Shown here one piece after another: positions 13,969 to 22,262 of a DNA stretch of 64,000 nucleotides (position 1 is the stretch's first letter; every line of letters begins with the position of its first letter). The notes below the pieces were generated by a model. That model was not told the DNA's origin and searched no databases. It saw only the letters and a list, made by a program, of their open reading frames with translations. This DNA is from an uncultured Candidatus Saccharibacteria bacterium (GTDB lineage: Bacteria > Patescibacteriota > Minisyncoccia > Phycocordibacterales > UBA2100): assembly GCA_964586255.1 (NCBI GenBank), contig CAZPGE010000001.1:133907-197906 (forward strand). Direction: 5' to 3'. The translations under genes and the position numbers were made by a program.

Positions 13969-14003
13969 AAAAAGACGTGTAATTTAGTAACTATGTATCT
14001 GGT

Positions 14004-14438
14004 CTATACGCGGCGAGGCTTCGGAGGTCGAGGGCCGTTGTGCGGAACCGGTGTATCGTCGGCAATGCGCGTTATGTCGATTCCTTTCCCTGCAAAGCCG
14101 CGCAATGCAGATTCGCGCCCTGCTCCTACGCCGCGGATAACGACATCAACTTCCTTTACACCAATGATGACCGCCTTGTCGCCCACAAGCTCACCCACCT
14201 TTGCAGCTGCAAACGGCGTGCCCTTCTTGGCGCCTGAGAACCCAATGCTTCCTGATGAAGACCACGCGATTGCGTTGCCGTTTTTGTCGGCTAGAAGAAC
14301 TTTCGTATTGTTGTACGTGGCGTGTACGTGAAGCGTACCAGCTGTAATGTTTTTCTTTGCGGTGCGCGCCAAAGAGCGTGACTTCAAGCCCGCGTCTACA
14401 GTGCCTCCTGATTTTCGGATGATTCGTTTCTTTCCCAT
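14004..14438 (-). CDS. rpsK: 30S ribosomal protein S11
   Basis: 144 aa uS11-like (...TPFAAAKVGELVGDKAVIIGVKEVDVVIRGVGAGRESALRGFAG...). Confidence 0.92.
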   Translation of the reverse strand: MGKKRIIRKSGGTVDAGLKSRSLARTAKKNITAGTLHVHATYNNTKVLLADKNGNAIAWSSSGSIGFSGAKKGTPFAAAKVGELVGDKAVIIGVKEVDVVIRGVGAGRESALRGFAGKGIDITRIADDTPVPHNGPRPPKPRRV

Positions 14439-14447
14439 AGATATCTA

Positions 14448-14828
14448 TTATGTTTTCTCTAGCTTACGGCGACCGCTTGTCATCGTCTTTCGGACGTTGC
14501 CACGCACCGTGCGCGAGTTCGTCTTAGTACGCTGACCGCGAGCAGGAAGTTTGCGCAGATGTCTCGTACCGCGGTGTGCCTTGATATCTTTGAGGCGGCG
14601 AATGTTACCGCTAATCTGGCGGCGCAATTCGCCTTCTATAACGTTTTTTTCGATCGCATCGCGAAGTGCGGACTCTTCCTGCGCCGAAAGATCCTTCGGC
14701 CTCTTACCGCCATCAATCTTGAGAACCTCAAGAGTCTTTTGCGCGCGAGGTCGTCCGACGCCGTATACGGCCGTAAGGCCAATATCAAGGCGCTTCTCTT
14801 CGGGTATGGTGATTCCTGCAATACGCAT
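14448..14828 (-). CDS. rpsM: 30S ribosomal protein S13
   Basis: 126 aa; MRIAGITIPEEKRLDIGLTAVYGVGR... is uS13-like. Confidence 0.93.
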   Translation of the reverse strand: MRIAGITIPEEKRLDIGLTAVYGVGRPRAQKTLEVLKIDGGKRPKDLSAQEESALRDAIEKNVIEGELRRQISGNIRRLKDIKAHRGTRHLRKLPARGQRTKTNSRTVRGNVRKTMTSGRRKLEKT

Positions 14829-14849
14829 AATGATTGTACAAAAAAATGA

Positions 14850-14963
14850 TTAGCCCTGACGCTGTTTGTGGCGTGGATTTGAGCAAATGACCCAAAGTCG
14901 ACCACGTCGTTTGACGTGGCGGCAATGCATGCAGATTTTTTTAACGGAAGCCTTAACCTTCAT
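14850..14963 (-). CDS. rpmJ: 50S ribosomal protein L36 (small gene absent from the ORF track)
   Basis: My own minus-strand translation: [37 protein letters not shown], with the C-x2-C-x12-C-x4-H zinc ribbon. Sits between rpsM and infA as in the canonical operon. Confidence 0.85.
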
Positions 14964-14974
14964 GGGTGTTTTAG

Positions 14975-15181
14975 TTAGATGCGCCGAGTGATGCGCGCAC
15001 GACCCCCATAAGGATCTAGCTGCAGCTGCACACGATCGCCTACGAGTACCTTAATTCTGTGCAGTCGCATCTTTCCCGCGAGGTACGCAAGTACCAGCTC
15101 TCCAGATGCCAGATTGACGCGAAAGAGCGTGTTTGGGAGCGCCTCCTCGACGACTCCTTCTACGACCTCTGTGTCAGCCAT
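14975..15181 (-). CDS. infA: Translation initiation factor IF-1
   Basis: From the internal Met: [68 protein letters not shown], an S1-like OB fold typical of IF1. Confidence 0.9.
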
Positions 15182-15224
15182 ATCTGCGCGGCCTAGAATA
15201 GCAGCAACTGTGGAGCGCGTCAAG

Positions 15225-16601
15225 CTACTCCGCGATTTCGGGGCTTTCGACCTTTATTTGGATGTCCGCAGGGTCCTCAGGAAAGGTACTTTTCCAGAAC
15301 GGTTCAATACGTGCCGTGGCCTCTTGTATGGAAGGTATGCCAGCTACGACAGGCTCGAACGCACTCTTGTCTTTACCCGCCAGCGCCGCCTGCAATTCTG
15401 CTTCATCGATCTTCCAAACGAGCGTCGCCGAGCCAGACACTGAGAATCGGATAGGGCCCGCGCCGAGCACCGTCGATGTCCCGACGGGCTGTGCGCCAAA
15501 TCCCGCACTTGGAATCAAATCGATCCCGTCAGCATCGACAATGGTGACTGCGCCACCGCCCACGCCCGCAGCAAACGCGCCGTCTTGGAACACCGGAATC
15601 TTTATACGAGCTCGCTGATGGATGCGCACACCTCCACCAGCCTCTGTTGTGTTTGGAAGGCTCTCGTATTCAATTTGCGTCAGACCAGAGAAGGTCACGT
15701 GTGACGCATCGATCTGAGCTGCGGCTTCGCGCGCTTTGGTCTCCAGACGCGCCCTGACAGCCGCTATCGCATTTTCGAGAGCTCCTGCGGCAACACCTGG
15801 TCGTTCGCCTACAAATCCTCCTGTGAACGATTCAGTGGACTCTGCGTATACCTGCGCATACATAGCGGGTGTTGATTTGAGCCCGGGGACGGTGAATTTT
15901 CCTGGCGCAACATTGTATTGCTCGCCAGGCTGATCTGCTACGACGGTAATCTCAATCTTGCCCGGCGTATTTCCCTGCTTCGCAGGGACCACGATGTCTG
16001 CGGGAGCTCGAAAGACATGCCCAGACGCACTGGCAAAGCGTGTATTTTTAACAAGCTTGAGCGGGGTCGTCTGGTAATTGTTGTATATCGTAATATTGCC
16101 CGTGGCTTTATCTTCGCCATAGACCACCCCCTCACTCGGGACCACTTCAGAATCTTCCAACTCAACGGATTGCACCGAATATTCGAGTGTTCCAAGTCCG
16201 GTACCTTCTGGGTCCGCAGAAAATGTCTCATCTGTAAATGTCAGCGCGTGGGTTCGGGGCTGAACCGTGACCCTCGTCGGTCGCATAGAGACAAATATCA
16301 ATGCTGCGAGGAGGAGCACACATATTGCCGCAATACCCCACATCACGTACTGACCCGACGAGCGACCCCGAGGTGTTGGTCCCAGGTTAGTCGGGTATTC
16401 CCGCGTGTCCTCAAACGTACGGGGTCGGGACCTTTGCGGCGGCGCAATATCGCGAATAGACCTTGTGCCCGCATCTATGCGGGGATTATTAATTGGTATG
16501 TGGGTCACCTCATCATTCGCGGATTCATCGACTGGACGAGCCGATGAAGAGTGGTGACTCTCATCCGGTGGAACGATGTCTTGAAAATAGTCTTTAGCCA
16601 T
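15225..16601 (-). CDS. Hypothetical single-pass membrane protein with a large extracytoplasmic domain, appended to the infA/ribosomal operon
   Basis: 458 aa. About 90-aa charged, Pro-rich cytoplasmic N-terminus, one TM (YVMWGIAAICVLLLAALIFVSM), then ~340 aa Gly/Ala/Thr-rich extracellular region. No recognisable catalytic motif. Confidence 0.5.
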   Translation of the reverse strand: MAKDYFQDIVPPDESHHSSSARPVDESANDEVTHIPINNPRIDAGTRSIRDIAPPQRSRPRTFEDTREYPTNLGPTPRGRSSGQYVMWGIAAICVLLLAALIFVSMRPTRVTVQPRTHALTFTDETFSADPEGTGLGTLEYSVQSVELEDSEVVPSEGVVYGEDKATGNITIYNNYQTTPLKLVKNTRFASASGHVFRAPADIVVPAKQGNTPGKIEITVVADQPGEQYNVAPGKFTVPGLKSTPAMYAQVYAESTESFTGGFVGERPGVAAGALENAIAAVRARLETKAREAAAQIDASHVTFSGLTQIEYESLPNTTEAGGGVRIHQRARIKIPVFQDGAFAAGVGGGAVTIVDADGIDLIPSAGFGAQPVGTSTVLGAGPIRFSVSGSATLVWKIDEAELQAALAGKDKSAFEPVVAGIPSIQEATARIEPFWKSTFPEDPADIQIKVESPEIAE

Positions 16602-16637
16602 GAGAATGGATTATATCACTGGAGGTACGCAACGATT

Positions 16638-17780
16638 TCATGCGCGACTCTCGATGTTGACAAGTGCTACAGCCACCGTGCATGCATCGGATGTTTTCGC
16701 GCCCGCCACCCATTTGGATACATCGAGCGACTGTGCAGTGTGCACGGTAAGGGGAAGCGATGTCTCGGTAAATTGGGCGAAGTCAATGCGCGCCAGAAAT
16801 CCTGCGAGCCACATCTCGAGGTCTGGGTGGACAAGAAGCAAGACGCCATTGGGCACGCGATTTTTTGCAGCAATCTTACCAATGGCCTCACCGAATACAC
16901 GTACGAGCTCCGGCTCCGTCGTCGCAACTGCTTGTCGGAGAGCATCACAGACATCCGTTGAACATGCATCGCGCGACAGCATTCGCAGGTAACCCGCCAC
17001 CTCGTCTGCCGGCCGTCCCGTGGCAATACGTGAAAGTATCGTGCGCGTACCTTCCGGTACGATGAGTTGATTCATTTCGCCATCTCGAAAAGACACAATG
17101 TGTGTATCTTCGATACCCATATCGATAACGAGAAATGATGTGTCGAGATGCGATTCTCGCGCGAACGTCATAAGTGCGCGAATACCCGAGCGCCACGATA
17201 TGCGAGCTACAGGAAAACTTTGCTCTACCGCACCTTTTATCGCAACTTTCACGGCCGCATCGCAGTCACTCACAACAGACGTAACACGCAGAGAATGCGC
17301 GCGCTTTCCCTCTGGCGCGGGCGTGGCATAGCCGTTTAGGTCCACTCGTATCACGCTTGCTTCAAGTACATTCCCGACGTCTATGTTTTTGGTATCCGCA
17401 AGTGCTTTCTTTGCATGTGCACTTATGAGAGCACTCTGTATCAGGGTCTCTCTCTCAAAGTGCTCCTCTGATGCACTGAGTGATGTGTGAGCCCACGGTG
17501 CATGAACTATTACATACGCTTCTGATATTGGCGCGTTGTGTCCGGCCGATGTGTACAACTTGAGCGCCTGAGCTGCAGCCTCCTTCACCTGCTCCCCTAT
17601 TTGCGCTTTCGACTGTTCTTCTGTGCGAGACTCAAGCGAAAGTGCCGAGGTAGCCGTGGCGAGCACAGTCGCCGGTGAATCCTTGGTGCTTGCGCATATA
17701 GCGACGCACGCGCCGCCTGCAGCAACGTCGATTACAGCGGTCGAATGAGCGCGATTAAAACCGATATTGATGTTGACCAT
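16638..17780 (-). CDS. Actin-like ATPase (ASKHA) superfamily protein, PilM/FtsA/Ppx-like
   Basis: 380 aa. N-terminal AVIDVAAGGACVAI and later LVIDMGIEDTHIVSFRDGE resemble the two phosphate-binding motifs of FtsA/PilM/Ppx-GppA. Assignment is tentative. Confidence 0.4.
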   Translation of the reverse strand: MVNINIGFNRAHSTAVIDVAAGGACVAICASTKDSPATVLATATSALSLESRTEEQSKAQIGEQVKEAAAQALKLYTSAGHNAPISEAYVIVHAPWAHTSLSASEEHFERETLIQSALISAHAKKALADTKNIDVGNVLEASVIRVDLNGYATPAPEGKRAHSLRVTSVVSDCDAAVKVAIKGAVEQSFPVARISWRSGIRALMTFARESHLDTSFLVIDMGIEDTHIVSFRDGEMNQLIVPEGTRTILSRIATGRPADEVAGYLRMLSRDACSTDVCDALRQAVATTEPELVRVFGEAIGKIAAKNRVPNGVLLLVHPDLEMWLAGFLARIDFAQFTETSLPLTVHTAQSLDVSKWVAGAKTSDACTVAVALVNIESRA

Positions 17781-17870
17781 TCACAATCAGTATACCTCGT
17801 GATATATACCGCTCATCACACGCATGCATGTGCAACTGGATATCTGCCAGCAATTTGGTTGATACATCGC

Positions 17871-18150
17871 TTACGAAAGTACCGACTTTATACGACGAGT
17901 ACCAGAGGCCACTGCTTCTTCTTTTTGGATTTTAAATGTACCACCCGTTCCTACCTCCTTTGTGTTGCTGACATGAGGGCCGCCGCAGAATTCGATAGAA
18001 TATGCTTCCTCGCTGCTTCACTGTGGACCCGAGAACGAGCTGCAATGCTTTCAATAGCAAATGATGTGCCGTGTGGAGTCGCGTAGTTTTTTCCGAGTGG
18101 TCCTCAAGGCCGCCCTTGAATTTCTGCTCCGCACCGGCCAGAGATGAATA
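17871..18150 (-). pseudogene. Decayed partial duplicate of the alaS 3' end (AlaRS C-terminal domain remnant)
   Basis: Nucleotide blocks about 75-80% identical to alaS at 18756..18860 and 19222..19270. Minus strand still encodes ...[46 protein letters not shown] (compare the alaS C-terminus ...[45 protein letters not shown]). It is interrupted upstream by an in-frame stop and an internal deletion. Confidence 0.6.
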
Positions 18151-18211
18151 CCAAACATTCGGATGATTATAGTAGGGTTAATCGGCAACTATAGTTCGTA
18201 TGTATATAACG

Positions 18212-18239
18212 CGTGCCCGACGAAATTTCGTCGGGCACG
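18212..18239. terminator. Perfect 28-nt palindrome CGTGCCCGACGAAATTTCGTCGGGCACG; hairpin/terminator downstream of the 18250..18720 gene
   Basis: Perfect inverted repeat seen directly in the sequence. Confidence 0.45.
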
Positions 18240-18249
18240 ATAGCGTTCG

Positions 18250-18720
18250 CTAAGCCAAAGACCTTGATTGCTGTCTTGGCTCCCGATTGACGACGATGAT
18301 AGTTCTCACTAGCAGCAGTCCGACGACGACGGACGCAACTGTACATGCTGTCAGAAACAACCAGCGCGGCGTAATCTCGGAAGTGCTGAGGACTCCCGTG
18401 ATGAAAACAAGAATCGGTGGCGCCGCAAAAAGTCGGTTCGGTTGGCCATGCCAAGCCTCGTTGACGCAAGCAACGGTAACGCCGCCCGCGACTAGCGCGA
18501 TCACGGAGAACACCATCAGTGCGAGACCGTTGAACACTCCGGCGAGTGCCTTGATACCTTCCGGATGAGATGCAGTCCGGGCAGCAAACGCCGCTTCCGA
18601 CTCTCCGAAATTCGCACCGGCCCACATGGCGGCAAGAACGGCTATTGAGGCGACCGCTGCGCCCAAGATTCTCAACATGGCTAATCTCCCGCTGTTATGC
18701 AGACACCTCGTGTCTGCCAA
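18250..18720 (-). CDS. Hypothetical small membrane protein (about 4 TM)
   Basis: 156-aa ORF with repeated hydrophobic helices (ILGAAVASIAVLAAMWAG..., LALMVFSVIALVAGGV..., ILVFITGVL..., VASVVVGLLLV). Confidence 0.4.
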   Translation of the reverse strand: MADTRCLHNSGRLAMLRILGAAVASIAVLAAMWAGANFGESEAAFAARTASHPEGIKALAGVFNGLALMVFSVIALVAGGVTVACVNEAWHGQPNRLFAAPPILVFITGVLSTSEITPRWLFLTACTVASVVVGLLLVRTIIVVNREPRQQSRSLA

Positions 18721-18745
18721 CTTTCAGACTAGCATCAGTTACTAG

Positions 18746-20665
18746 TCAGACCAAGATTGCTTTGATTCGTCGAATTCCTGAGGCGACCGCTTCTTCCTTT
18801 TGGATTTTGAAGGCTCCGTCCGTGCCAATTTCCTTTGTGTTGTTTACATGTGGGCCGCCACAAAATTCGATCGAGTATGCCTCCGCAAATTGCGGATTTT
18901 CTTGCGATGCCGTGATTGGCCCCACTGAGTACACGGATACCATGTCTGGATACTTGGCTCCGAATTCATGTTCGGCGCCGAGCATTTCGGCGTCTTCCCT
19001 TGGAAGAGTCGAGCGAACTACGGGCAATGCATCTTGAATGCGCTCATTCACGATGCGTTCTACGTCTGCAATCTGCTCTTTGGTCATCTTTTCTCCGTGC
19101 GAGAAGTCGATGCGAAGTCTTTCCGATGTAATGTTCGAGCCGCGCTGCTTCACATGGGGACCGAGCACTATCTGCAACGCTTTGAGAAGCAGGTGATGGG
19201 CCGTGTGAAGTCGTGTCGTCTTTTCAGAATGGTCTGCAAGACCTCCTTTGAATTTTTGCTCAGCACCAGCACGAGAAAGCTCTTGATGTGTTTTCATTCG
19301 CTCATAAAATCCCCTACTGTCCACTGAAATACCTCGCTCTACGGCGAGCTCTTGTGTCATTTCAAACGGAAATCCATAGGTGGTGAAGAGCATGTACGCG
19401 CCATCGGCCGTTATTGGGCTGTCGCTGAGTTTCTCAAATTCACGTAGCCCGCTTTCAAGTGTTCGCGCAAACTGCACTTCCTCTTTCCAGATTTCCGATG
19501 TGATGTCTTGATACACTGCTTCTCCGTCGAGCTCCGCGTAAGCTTGTTTGTACTTTTCCATCAATATCACCGAAGTGCGCACAAGCATGCTGTCCTCCGT
19601 TTTTTCAGCGGCAATGCCAATCTTTTGTACATGCTGCGATGCCCTCCTCAGAAGGCGGCGCAATACGTATCCGCGGTCGGTATTCGATGGCCTCACGCCG
19701 TCGGCAAGCATAAAGACCGCGGCGCGCATGTGATCAGCAACGATTCGGAATGAGCGCCTGTAGCGGCTGTCTGCATATTCTTTACCTGAAAATTTCTCTA
19801 GCAGCTCTATGACATCCCAAAAGACATCGGTCTTAAAGACATCTGAATCCCCTCTTTGCGCCGCCGCAATCCGCTCAAGCCCGCCACCGAAGTCTACATT
19901 TTGCTTGGGGAGCAGCGCGAACGAGCCATCGGCCTGCTTGATGTACTGCATGAACACGGAATTCCCTATTTCCATAAATCGCCCGCAATCACAATTCGGA
20001 TGACATTCTGGGCCAAACTTGGCATCGTGAGGTGTGCCGAAGTCGTAAAATACCTCGCTGTCGGGTCCGCCGGGCTCGCCAGTGGGCATATTCTCTGGCA
20101 CGCCGGCGCGACTCCACCAATTCTTTTTTGCGTTGTAGTAGAAGATTCGTCCGCCCCGCATACCAAGTCGGTACCCATCGGCCTCACTTCCTACGTCACG
20201 TATTTCCGCATCTATACCGCGCTCACTGAAGAGACGCTGCCATATCTCCGCCGACTCCGTGTCGCGCGGCACATTGTTGGCTTCATCCCCGATAAACGCG
20301 GTGACATAGAGTCGACTCGCATCGATACCAATGTCCTTGGTAAGAAATTCAAACACAAATGGCAATTGCTCATTCTTAAAGTAGTCACCGAGCGACCAAT
20401 TGCCGAGCATTTCAAAGAATGTCGTGTGACGGTTATCGCCCACCTCATCGATATCCTCGGCGCGGAAGCACTTTTGACTATTCACGAGTCGTACGCCTTT
20501 GGGATGCGGCTCACCGAGAAGATACGGGACCAGGGGCTGCATGCCGGATCCTGTAAAAAGCGTGGTCGGATCATTTTGCGGCACGAGCGACGCAGATGGA
20601 ATCACCGTGTGCCCGCGCGCTTTATAAAACTGCAGGTATCGCTCGCGAATATCGTTGACGGTCAT
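18746..20665 (-). CDS. alaS: Alanine--tRNA ligase, short form (catalytic, tRNA-binding and editing domains; no C-Ala domain)
   Basis: From the Met at 20665 (MTVNDIRERYLQFYKARGHTVIPSASLVP...). Class II motifs; editing-domain HxxxH/CxxxH region near the C-terminus. Confidence 0.92.
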   Translation of the reverse strand: MTVNDIRERYLQFYKARGHTVIPSASLVPQNDPTTLFTGSGMQPLVPYLLGEPHPKGVRLVNSQKCFRAEDIDEVGDNRHTTFFEMLGNWSLGDYFKNEQLPFVFEFLTKDIGIDASRLYVTAFIGDEANNVPRDTESAEIWQRLFSERGIDAEIRDVGSEADGYRLGMRGGRIFYYNAKKNWWSRAGVPENMPTGEPGGPDSEVFYDFGTPHDAKFGPECHPNCDCGRFMEIGNSVFMQYIKQADGSFALLPKQNVDFGGGLERIAAAQRGDSDVFKTDVFWDVIELLEKFSGKEYADSRYRRSFRIVADHMRAAVFMLADGVRPSNTDRGYVLRRLLRRASQHVQKIGIAAEKTEDSMLVRTSVILMEKYKQAYAELDGEAVYQDITSEIWKEEVQFARTLESGLREFEKLSDSPITADGAYMLFTTYGFPFEMTQELAVERGISVDSRGFYERMKTHQELSRAGAEQKFKGGLADHSEKTTRLHTAHHLLLKALQIVLGPHVKQRGSNITSERLRIDFSHGEKMTKEQIADVERIVNERIQDALPVVRSTLPREDAEMLGAEHEFGAKYPDMVSVYSVGPITASQENPQFAEAYSIEFCGGPHVNNTKEIGTDGAFKIQKEEAVASGIRRIKAILV

Positions 20666-20731
20666 TCGAATCAAAGTAGCGCGACGAAGGCTTTTGCGCA
20701 ACGAGGCGCTGGAGGATACTATGCGCTAGTC

Positions 20732-22003
20732 ATGAAAAGCCGTATACACACTCTCAAGAACGGACTCCGCATCGTGCTCACCAAGGTGCCCGGCAACAAG
20801 ACGGCGACCGTTGTCGTCATGACTGGTACGGGCTCTCGCTATGAGAGCGCAAGCGAGAACGGACTGGCACACTTCCTTGAACACATGTTTTTTAAGGGGA
20901 CGAGAAAGCGTCCGTCTGCAAAGGCTATTAGCGAAGAGCTCGATGGCGTCGGCGCTGTTTACAATGCATATACGGCAAAGGACCGCACTGCCTATTATGC
21001 AAAAGTGGGCGCAGAGTATATCGACTCGGCGCTCGACGTCATCACGGATATATTTTTGAATTCCTCGCTTCCCTCACGCGAAATAACTAAAGAGCGAGGC
21101 GCAATCATCCAAGAAATTGATATGTACGAAGATATGCCGATGCGTACCGTCGACAATGTATTTGAGGAATTACTTTTCGGCGCAGAACACCCACTTGGCA
21201 GAACCATTTTGGGTCCTAAGGCAAACATTCGTCGTTTTACACGAGAGGAATTTATTGCGTATCACAAGCGCAACTACACACCGCTCAATACAATAGTCTC
21301 CATCGCGGGCGATTTTGATGAAAAGAAAGCGCTTGCGAAGCTGCAGAAGATTTTCGGGATACTTGATGTAGGTAACCCGCCAGACTGCATCACATTTTCA
21401 TCGGAGCAAGATTCTGCGCGTGCTGCAATAAAAGAAAAGAAGACGGACCAGACACAGCTTATGATTGGTGTACCTGCATACCCGTATCAGCACAAAGACG
21501 AGTATGTACTTGCGGTCTTGTCGACGGCACTCGGCGGCGGTATGTCGAGCCGACTTTTCACAGAAGTTCGTGAAAAACGCGGGCTTGCATATTCCGTACA
21601 CGCGTGGATTGAGAAATACCCCGATACGGGATATCTCGCAGTGCAGGCAGGCGTGCAGCACGAGAAGCTAAACGAGACGGTCAAAACAGTTCTTGCTGAA
21701 TTCCGGAAGCTCAAGCGAGTGCGCATACCTTCTGCGGAGCTCGCGAAAGTGAAGGCATATCTGAGAGGCACCATGACACTTTCCCTCGAAACGAGCGATG
21801 AAATAGCTCAAGACGCTGCATCTTCTCTACTTACGACACGGCGGATACGCCCCCTTTCAGAGCGCCTCAACGCCATCGATGCCGTGAGCGCAGCCGATGT
21901 GCAGCGCGTTGCCGTCGACCTCTTCAAAGGACATCTCCTCAATCTCGCCGTAATAGGACCGCATGCGAACCGAAGGGAGCTGGAGGCCCTCCTCAAGATA
22001 TAG
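20732..22003 (+). CDS. M16 family zinc peptidase (pitrilysin-like, inverted HxxEH motif)
   Basis: True start MKSRIHTLKNGLRIV... at 20732, not the 715-aa ORF beginning at 19856. Contains HFLEHMFFKGT (HxxEH). Confidence 0.88.
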   Translation: MKSRIHTLKNGLRIVLTKVPGNKTATVVVMTGTGSRYESASENGLAHFLEHMFFKGTRKRPSAKAISEELDGVGAVYNAYTAKDRTAYYAKVGAEYIDSALDVITDIFLNSSLPSREITKERGAIIQEIDMYEDMPMRTVDNVFEELLFGAEHPLGRTILGPKANIRRFTREEFIAYHKRNYTPLNTIVSIAGDFDEKKALAKLQKIFGILDVGNPPDCITFSSEQDSARAAIKEKKTDQTQLMIGVPAYPYQHKDEYVLAVLSTALGGGMSSRLFTEVREKRGLAYSVHAWIEKYPDTGYLAVQAGVQHEKLNETVKTVLAEFRKLKRVRIPSAELAKVKAYLRGTMTLSLETSDEIAQDAASSLLTTRRIRPLSERLNAIDAVSAADVQRVAVDLFKGHLLNLAVIGPHANRRELEALLKI

Positions 22004-22007
22004 CCGC

Positions 22008-22262
22008 TTACAGCGCACCCTCGGTAGCAAGTATCTGTCTTTTGCGCTCGATACCGCCTCTGTTGTAGCCGCGCATCGTACCATCCGAGGCGACGACTCT
22101 ATGACACGGGATAGATTCATCAAAATTCGTGCGCATAATCGCACCGACTGCTCTCGCGGCTTTTTCGTTGCCGGCTTTCTTGGCTACTTCTTTATAGGTG
22201 AGAGTCTTGCCTTTGGGGATTGCGCGTACGATATCTCGAACTTTGTCCGCAAAAGTCTTCAT
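22008..22262 (-). CDS. Minimal O6-alkylguanine-DNA alkyltransferase (MGMT DNA-binding/active-site domain only)
   Basis: 84 aa. PCHRVV active-site motif (Cys retained, so not an Atl-type PWHRV). HTH ...VAKKAGNEKAARAVGAIMRTN... Confidence 0.8.
   Translation of the reverse strand: MKTFADKVRDIVRAIPKGKTLTYKEVAKKAGNEKAARAVGAIMRTNFDESIPCHRVVASDGTMRGYNRGGIERKRQILATEGAL

Follow-up and report, generated by a model that had tools for sequence, protein, structure and literature searches.

The alanyl-tRNA synthetase gene (alaS) of the window, by which we mean the whole 64,000-nt stretch of DNA analysed here, lies on the minus strand at 18746..20701 and has a listed product of 651 aa, with catalytic and editing domains (Pfam tRNA-synt_2c, 1.5e-116; tRNA_SAD, 5.9e-15) and without a C-Ala domain; its real start is probably a few codons further downstream than listed. 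Short AlaRS proteins of this kind are found clade-wide, those of the window and of the loci L001–L093 being ∼595–665 aa long, ending just past tRNA_SAD and lacking C-Ala. Along the minus strand alaS is followed by a 67-nt leader, a gene referred to here as memb, a palindrome, a 70-nt spacer, a fragment of alaS, 90 nt of intergenic DNA and the conserved hypothetical gene orf380. A first junction, J1, together with the leader spans 18679..18760 (minus strand) and takes in the last four alaS codons (ILV*), the stop and the 67 nt that follow it. The memb gene (18250..18678, minus strand, from the ORF list) encodes an orphan small membrane protein of 142 aa, and the palindrome, which has no strand, lies directly 3′ of it at 18213..18238. 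The spacer (18141..18212, minus strand) is 84% identical to the stretch before a gene of another genome, orf385 of L081, and ends at a second junction, J2 (18141..18144, minus strand), a TCTC microhomology. The blastn homology of the fragment to alaS stops at 18144, the fragment ends at 17871, and the intergenic DNA (17781..17870, minus strand), for which an alignment to intergenic DNA of the type found in L089 was made, leads into the native orf380 (16638..17780, minus strand). The fragment had been described as a tandem copy immediately downstream of alaS, but ∼600 nt, holding memb, the hairpin and a promoter-like spacer, intervene between the alaS stop (18746) and the fragment start (18144).

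Comparison by blastn of 17781..18250 with 18721..20760 aligned the fragment with the alaS 3′ end in two collinear, same-strand matches. The N block of the fragment (18004..18144, minus strand; 89% aa by tblastn) corresponds to alaS codons ∼476–522 and contains the HxxxH motif (HTAHH); within it, 18008..18144 matches 19140..19276 at 108 of 138 positions (78%, E 4e-27). The C block (17871..18011, minus strand; 84% aa by tblastn; Pfam tRNA_SAD) corresponds to codons 606–651 and the TAA stop (17871..17873) and contains the CxxxH motif (CGGPH); here the match is between 17887..18009 and 18762..18884 (96/123 identical, 78%, E 5e-25). When the window was searched with AlaRS by tblastn these two were the sole extra pieces in its whole length, and the concatenated fragment peptide matches Pfam tRNA_SAD (PF07973, E 3.6e-14). 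The pairwise alignment suggested in the preliminary description of this DNA bears out its claim of two blocks homologous to the alaS 3′ end, and the AlaRS-like C-terminal peptide that it quoted is correct, being a 46-aa peptide in frame 2 that ends at the TAA; a second frame encodes a 45-aa peptide. The N and C blocks are split by a single deletion at ∼18009, and 83 core codons of the editing domain are absent from the fragment. The loss of such a stretch had been noticed previously, with an estimate of ∼270 nt; its size is 257 nt, and it also explains the frameshift. This deletion is the only lesion, with no other stops or small indels across the 91 aligned codons.

The fragment is nonetheless disabled as a gene, with no start codon, the 5′ two-thirds of the gene absent and the frame disrupted. 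An in-frame stop lies 18 codons upstream of the start of homology (codon ∼475), no ATG, GTG or TTG occurs between this stop and the sequence AGAEQ, and the ATG of the spacer is out of frame with the fragment, reading to a stop at 18051 to give a 35-aa junk peptide. Scans of 17500..19000 with Rfam and with promoter and terminator consensus patterns gave nothing meaningful. It is most likely that the fragment is now inert DNA, which would be transcribed within a long orf380 leader if the promoter-like box of the preceding cassette is active. The ORF list also holds a fusion ORF at 18051..18188 (minus strand, 45 aa) that starts at an upstream TTG; from the spacer ATG at 18158 it consists of the first six codons of an orf380-family gene, after which the alaS fragment is read out of frame.

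It had been suggested that the fragment may be the remnant of a split AlaX-like gene. In its fuller form, this reading supposes a free-standing gene for trans-editing, or a split alaS of which this was the second half, that was long-lived and lost its activity only recently. Like AlaX (AlaXp), the fragment has its homology in the editing domain of AlaRS, with whose start its boundary coincides, both zinc motifs (HxxxH and CxxxH) are kept, and the substitution pattern described below is that of purifying selection. Such a gene is nevertheless very unlikely, given the lack of a start codon before AGAEQ, the out-of-frame ATG of the spacer and the deletion of the 83 core codons. Full-length AlaRS proteins of the same clade (86% aa), and not any AlaX, are the fragment's closest matches, and no relative has a free-standing gene of this kind at the locus (80 loci and the five closest contigs), so that at least four precise and independent losses would be needed. 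A family of 158-aa ‘tRNA_SAD’ proteins in the databases (MFKGGLANH...), which made up most of the matches when the donor was sought with the fragment peptide, was considered as a candidate AlaX and rejected as an artefact of N-runs in scaffolds; in the loci behind these proteins (L091 3758..5477; L092 2315..4034; L093 1341..3257) alaS is cut by N-runs and the gene call restarts at an internal Met.

The arrangement of the locus in relatives, all of which are represented by metagenome assemblies, bears on the age of the block between alaS and orf380. The AlaRS of the window matches those of Patescibacteria MAGs (Kaiserbacteria- or Paceibacteria-like) at no more than 74% aa identity, and a protein search with orf380 gave a graded series of relatives, namely L089 (89% aa), L083 (GCA_007375785, Parcubacteria bacterium Athens0416_74) and L085 (both 85%), L086 (64%) and L087 (60%); orf380 identity pairs the window genome with L089, and L083 with L085. 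In all five, alaS is followed after 55–180 nt by orf380, with neither memb nor a fragment in between. Likewise, at the three best AlaRS genome loci (L001–L003) alaS is directly followed by an orf380 homologue, orf458 and infA, and the synteny alaS-orf380-orf458-infA-rpsM is seen in relatives. No second alaS piece and no memb homologue was found among 80 genome loci; the preliminary description had proposed looking for the same remnant in related genomes, and neither these loci nor the five closest relatives contain it. Because close relatives have alaS and orf380 together without memb or the fragment, the ∼0.9-kb block is an insertion specific to this lineage that postdates its split from L089. 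The alaS-orf380 intergenic region of L083 (4113..4292) carries a tandem duplication of its own, of ∼62 nt (GGTATACCCCATGAGATATTCAGTAATAGACACTTGCAGAACTCTAGTGCGCCTATCTCACGG), which takes in the promoter-proximal motif.

The gene carried by this block, memb, is preceded by a GGGAG Shine-Dalgarno sequence at 18690..18686, and the hydropathy of its product shows three hydrophobic stretches with room for three to four membrane spans. No family match was found in Pfam, NCBIfam or PHROGs. A word-indexed search of 5.8e9 proteins yielded two homologues, and a profile search of 1.8e9 representatives recovered its own cassette cluster and one weak match of 462 aa. No further copies of the cassette were present in IMG/VR or in JGI contigs, and a 20-mer across J2 was likewise absent from the JGI contigs. 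The palindrome that follows memb is perfect over 26 nt, forms a 12-bp stem with a 4-nt loop when folded and is conserved in L081; it is unique in the window, where 0 are expected by chance, and the 66 nt around it (18195..18260) fold at −27.3 kcal/mol in RNAfold, with the palindrome stem accounting for most of this energy. It is probably the memb terminator or an RNA-stabilising stem; a simple terminator scan did not call it, as it has no T-run.

L081 is the one genome in which the cassette was met again, in the order alaS, memb (76% aa), hairpin, spacer and orf385, with no fragment. Between the alaS stop and the far end of the spacer, the window and L081 are 80–85% identical at the nucleotide level, non-coding DNA included (memb pS 0.40, pN 0.13), whereas their alaS 3′ ends are 69% identical (pS 0.83) and the orf380 of the window shares 41% aa with the L081 homologue, which is as distant as those of L001–L003. 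Since the cassette is far more similar between the window and L081 than are the genes that flank it, its two copies have a much more recent ancestor in common than their hosts, and it appears to have moved horizontally, a view drawn from one comparison of the two copies in public data. The inserted DNA as a whole has a history different from that of its flanks: pS is 0.40 for memb as against 0.83 for alaS in the comparison with L081, and 0.84 for the fragment as against ∼0.5 for the flanks in that with L089. The block holds no recombinase or integrase, the 142-aa membrane ORF being its only gene.

Both ends of the insertion can be placed with some precision. J1 (∼18760) falls in the highly conserved coding stretch ...IRRIKA; the alignment of the window with L089 breaks after ...CGAATCAAAGCA, and from J1 on the alignment with L081 climbs to 45–51 identical positions per 60 nt, so that the last four codons of the resident alaS, and only those, are cassette-like. 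At the other end, the spacer contains a TATAAT box (18171..18166) 7 nt before ATG TTT GGT ATT CAT CTC (18158..18141), and its counterpart in L081 reads through in frame to orf385 (MFGMHLGRGR). The window, L081, L083, L085, L086, L087 and L089 share this layout, in which a TATACT or TATAAT box precedes the ATG by 7 nt and the N-terminus follows the pattern M-x-x-[IMV]-[NH]-[IL]. The spacer is the promoter-like 5′ region of a foreign gene of the orf380 family, cut after codon 6. At J2 this codon 6 is fused to codon ∼475 of alaS; the TCTC at the join is common to codons 5–6 of the orf380 family (CAT CTC) and to codons ∼475–476 of alaS (TCT CGT in the resident gene); with the parental sequences taken from homologues, J2 appears to mark an illegitimate join at a 4-nt microhomology. 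The two ends together have the form of a recombination scar, with J1 in conserved homology and J2 illegitimate at short microhomology. The gap between box and ATG contains no Shine-Dalgarno sequence in the orf380 family (17781..17800 and 18159..18171 in the window, and in the relatives), suggesting from these sequences that orf380-family transcripts may be leaderless or near-leaderless.

The intergenic DNA beyond the fragment (17781..17870) is composite in its resemblance. Its last ∼20 nt, with a TATACT box, are native-like, and its first ∼70 nt are collinear with L089-type intergenic DNA, to which they are ∼60% identical with two deletions; they may be foreign, or native DNA under relaxed constraint. 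These 70 nt show weak similarity to ancestral-type intergenic regions (p 0.015–0.08), while a comparison with the cassette leader, of which they could have been a second, deleted copy, was not significant (p 0.29).

One reading of the locus, put forward in the preliminary description, is a partial tandem duplication of the resident alaS 3′ end in situ, followed by neutral decay. It accounts for two same-strand copies 600 nt apart, and the nearest protein to the fragment is indeed the resident AlaRS, tied with those of L083 and L085 at 86% aa. The placement of the differences is, however, hard to reconcile with decay. In the 91-codon comparison, which was made by identities per codon position, the fragment and the resident alaS differ at 12, 8 and 52 sites at codon positions 1, 2 and 3 (72 in total), with pN 0.097 and a saturated pS of 0.785 (0.82 by the other figure obtained). 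A duplicate that was dead on arrival would be expected to show 16–18 third-position differences, conditioned on the change observed at positions 1 and 2 and on a dead branch changing at all positions equally, and the observed 52 departs from this with P between 4e-17 and 2e-14. Because this third-position excess rejects neutral decay, the divergence between the two copies must have built up under purifying selection, while both encoded working editing domains in different lineages. Three further observations point the same way: L089 has no copy, yet pS between the copies (0.82) exceeds that between the window and L089 (∼0.5); the resident gene is nearer to L083, L085 and L089 than to the fragment; and the 600 nt between the copies are a cassette shared with the distant L081, not duplicated host DNA. 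Duplication in situ is accordingly highly improbable. Of the earlier view of a fossil duplicate it still holds that this is a non-functional, internally deleted piece of an alaS 3′ end; that it is a decayed copy of the resident gene does not.

If the two copies come from different lineages, either could be the newcomer. Under a displacement of the icd/icdC type, an incoming alaS 3′ end would have arrived with memb and the fragment would be the original end, pushed downstream. This has precedents in icd/icdC at prophage e14 (PMC13626634) and in the orphan modules of Rhs, CDI and type VI secretion (T6SS) loci (PMC5361080), and it sits well with the position of the fragment at the ancestral alaS-end site, 90 nt upstream of orf380, and with the cassette-like last four resident codons. 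The polarity of the divergence is opposite to that predicted, though. As far as ∼18760, the resident alaS keeps a uniform 80–88% identity to L083, L085 and L089, its 3′ end being as near to them as the rest of the gene; in the comparison with L089 identity is 85–88% across the final 167 nt and pS for the tail is 0.47–0.52, close to the 0.51 of orf380. By contrast, the fragment is just 73–77% identical to the three at the nucleotide level, with pS 0.84 to L089. An integrase-mediated displacement is further opposed by the lack of a site-specific recombinase in the block. Displacement of the native end is, on these grounds, quite unlikely. An imported 3′ end of the resident alaS was also looked for in a mosaic test and rejected, identity to L083 and L085 being flat from 5′ to 3′ (uniformly 0.73–0.93 along the entire gene).

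It is the fragment that would be the foreign copy, because it is the one that stands apart from the relatives (73–77%, pS 0.84) to which the resident gene is close (80–88%, pS 0.47–0.52); on the same comparisons the resident alaS is native up to four codons before its stop (∼18760). The depth of the fragment's divergence lies well beyond the split from L089, the nearest relative, with the qualification that third positions are near saturation already between the window and L083 and deeper divergence is beyond measurement there. A motif, NTKE[IV]GT[DG]G, is common to the fragment and to the group of the window, L083 and L085 and is not found in L086 or L087; because of this shared motif, the source would be a related, unsampled lineage. 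A search for the donor found no public alaS nearer to the fragment than the resident gene (86% aa) and no public sequence nearer than about 78% at the nucleotide level. Several residues that do not vary among 13 AlaRS sequences are replaced in the fragment alone, for instance the A of GGLADH by E and the I of GIRRIK by T; these changes and the lone deletion are compatible with a short phase, late in its history, free of constraint.

Because the DNA comes from a metagenome-assembled genome, and samples of this sort contain related populations side by side (contig L082 being a 99.7% variant), an assembly chimera of reads from two such populations was also weighed. The preliminary description had asked for an assembly check, and an artefact proved unlikely: L090, from another assembler and collection (Logan assembly, run ERR3094292), is 100% identical over 20411..14000 of the window (6.4 kb), J1, J2 and the deletion junction included, and L082, an ENA contig from another sample, covers the left half (19006..18215) at 99.7%. 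An identical orf380 occurs on four contigs, the repeats (∼130 nt at 78%) are too diverged for collapse or assembler error, and switching between strains does not yield a fusion of codon 6 to codon 475 or a 257-nt deletion. We consider a chimera extremely unlikely, and the least probable of the readings weighed here.

The best explanation of these observations is that the fragment is the 3′ third (codons ∼475–651) of an alaS from another, related lineage of Patescibacteria and at no time functioned as a gene in this genome. It would be a foreign piece that came with the cassette and remains as a xenologous pseudogene scar, a reading to which we give a probability of roughly three in four, the exact route of recombination being less certain. 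The cassette would comprise the last alaS codons, memb, the hairpin, and the beginning of a foreign gene of the orf380 type, with its promoter and six codons. In one route, a stretch beginning at alaS codon ∼475 and ending at codon 6 of orf380 would have been looped out, or circularised, in a donor with the order alaS-memb-orf380, by illegitimate recombination at the TCTC microhomology, and the circle would then have integrated by a single homologous crossover near the alaS end (Campbell-type). Alternatively, the composite may have formed by homology-facilitated illegitimate recombination (HFIR) in an intermediate host and been handed on by ordinary homologous recombination. Either route would leave a complete native alaS, the cassette and a promoterless, start-less foreign alaS tail, which would afterwards have lost 257 nt and gained a few changes at otherwise invariant residues. 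The data do not separate the two routes. A simple Campbell model predicts a native end to the fragment and native intergenic DNA after it; the observed ∼60% identity to L089, with indels, is ambiguous in this respect.

Events of this general kind are familiar from other bacteria. The icdC copy of E. coli is reported to differ from icd mainly synonymously, the copies being said to have evolved in different lineages (Hill and colleagues, in 1989). At the e14 site, a complete gene is followed by an acquired element and then by a truncated C-terminal pseudogene copy (PMC13626634). The alaS locus resembles that of icd/icdC (e14 and the phage 21 attachment site, E. coli K-12) in having a complete gene, an element and a truncated copy beyond it. 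It differs in that the E. coli gene takes its new 3′ end from the element and the piece pushed downstream is the native one, whereas here the working gene is native to within four codons of its stop and the downstream piece appears to be foreign; in addition, there is no integrase or prophage here, only a single 142-aa gene, and the junction is an apparent illegitimate fusion to the start of another gene.

The second class of precedent is HFIR, said to have been described in 2002 by de Vries and Wackernagel and by Prudhomme and co-workers. As in HFIR and the orphan modules attributed to it, one end of the insertion lies in a conserved anchor, here the alaS 3′ end, and the other at a microhomology of a few bases, here TCTC, and 3′-end fragments of the conserved gene remain downstream. 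Such events generated the orphan 3′ modules of the Rhs, CDI and T6SS loci (PMC5361080; PMC3240628). Those systems diversify modules of toxin and immunity, while this locus has a tRNA synthetase gene for its anchor and carries an orphan membrane protein as cargo; the piece left behind downstream, moreover, would here derive from the donor and not from the recipient.

Campbell integration of a circle by a single crossover, as with suicide plasmids and specialised transducing genomes, leaves a complete gene, the insert and a 5′-truncated copy whose truncation point is set by the end of homology on the circle. In contrast to those cases, the present block has no replicon or phage functions, the circle is a supposition of the model, and the truncated copy does not end in clearly native DNA. 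In relation to AlaX, too, the fragment departs from a functional counterpart by its missing start codon, deleted core and absence from relatives.

The feature is thus real but ordinary, the scar of a horizontal acquisition of a known kind. It leaves AlaRS biology unchanged and would hold no surprise for a specialist in genome evolution; it is nonetheless a clean and datable case of gene gain mediated by recombination in a genome of the Candidate Phyla Radiation (Patescibacteria), in which foreign DNA of ∼1 kb entered a streamlined genome at a housekeeping locus and left a scar that is still present. A practical rule also emerges, namely that the codon placement of the differences, together with near relatives, tells a decayed duplicate from a foreign homologue. 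A more far-reaching possibility, which we regard as unlikely, is that the ∼1.1-kb unit (alaS codons 475–651, memb, hairpin and outward promoter) is a minimal mobile cassette that lacks a recombinase and spreads among Patescibacteria by DNA uptake, the alaS slice serving as a homology arm for insertion at the alaS end by the RecA of the host. Were this so, the fragment would be a functional integration arm and not junk, and alaS would be left unharmed by each insertion.

Several minor observations concern the neighbouring genes. Downstream, orf380 and orf458 (15225..17780) form a conserved gene pair without a Pfam family that sits between alaS and infA-rpsM-rpsK-rpsD-rpoA in many Paceibacteria; relatives of orf458 give weak Baseplate_J matches, and orf380 evolves fast, at 41–89% aa identity among genomes in which the editing-domain end of AlaRS is 75–90% identical. 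On the plus strand, a 715-aa ORF (19856..22003) is mostly an antisense shadow of alaS, and its match to a protein of relatives, their divergently transcribed M16 peptidase, is limited to the last ∼412 aa (from ∼20765). Beyond it, 22008..22262 (minus strand) encodes an 84-aa protein that is the DNA-binding domain of O6-methylguanine methyltransferase alone (PF01035); in relatives it is conserved beside a gene for a PD-(D/E)XK nuclease.
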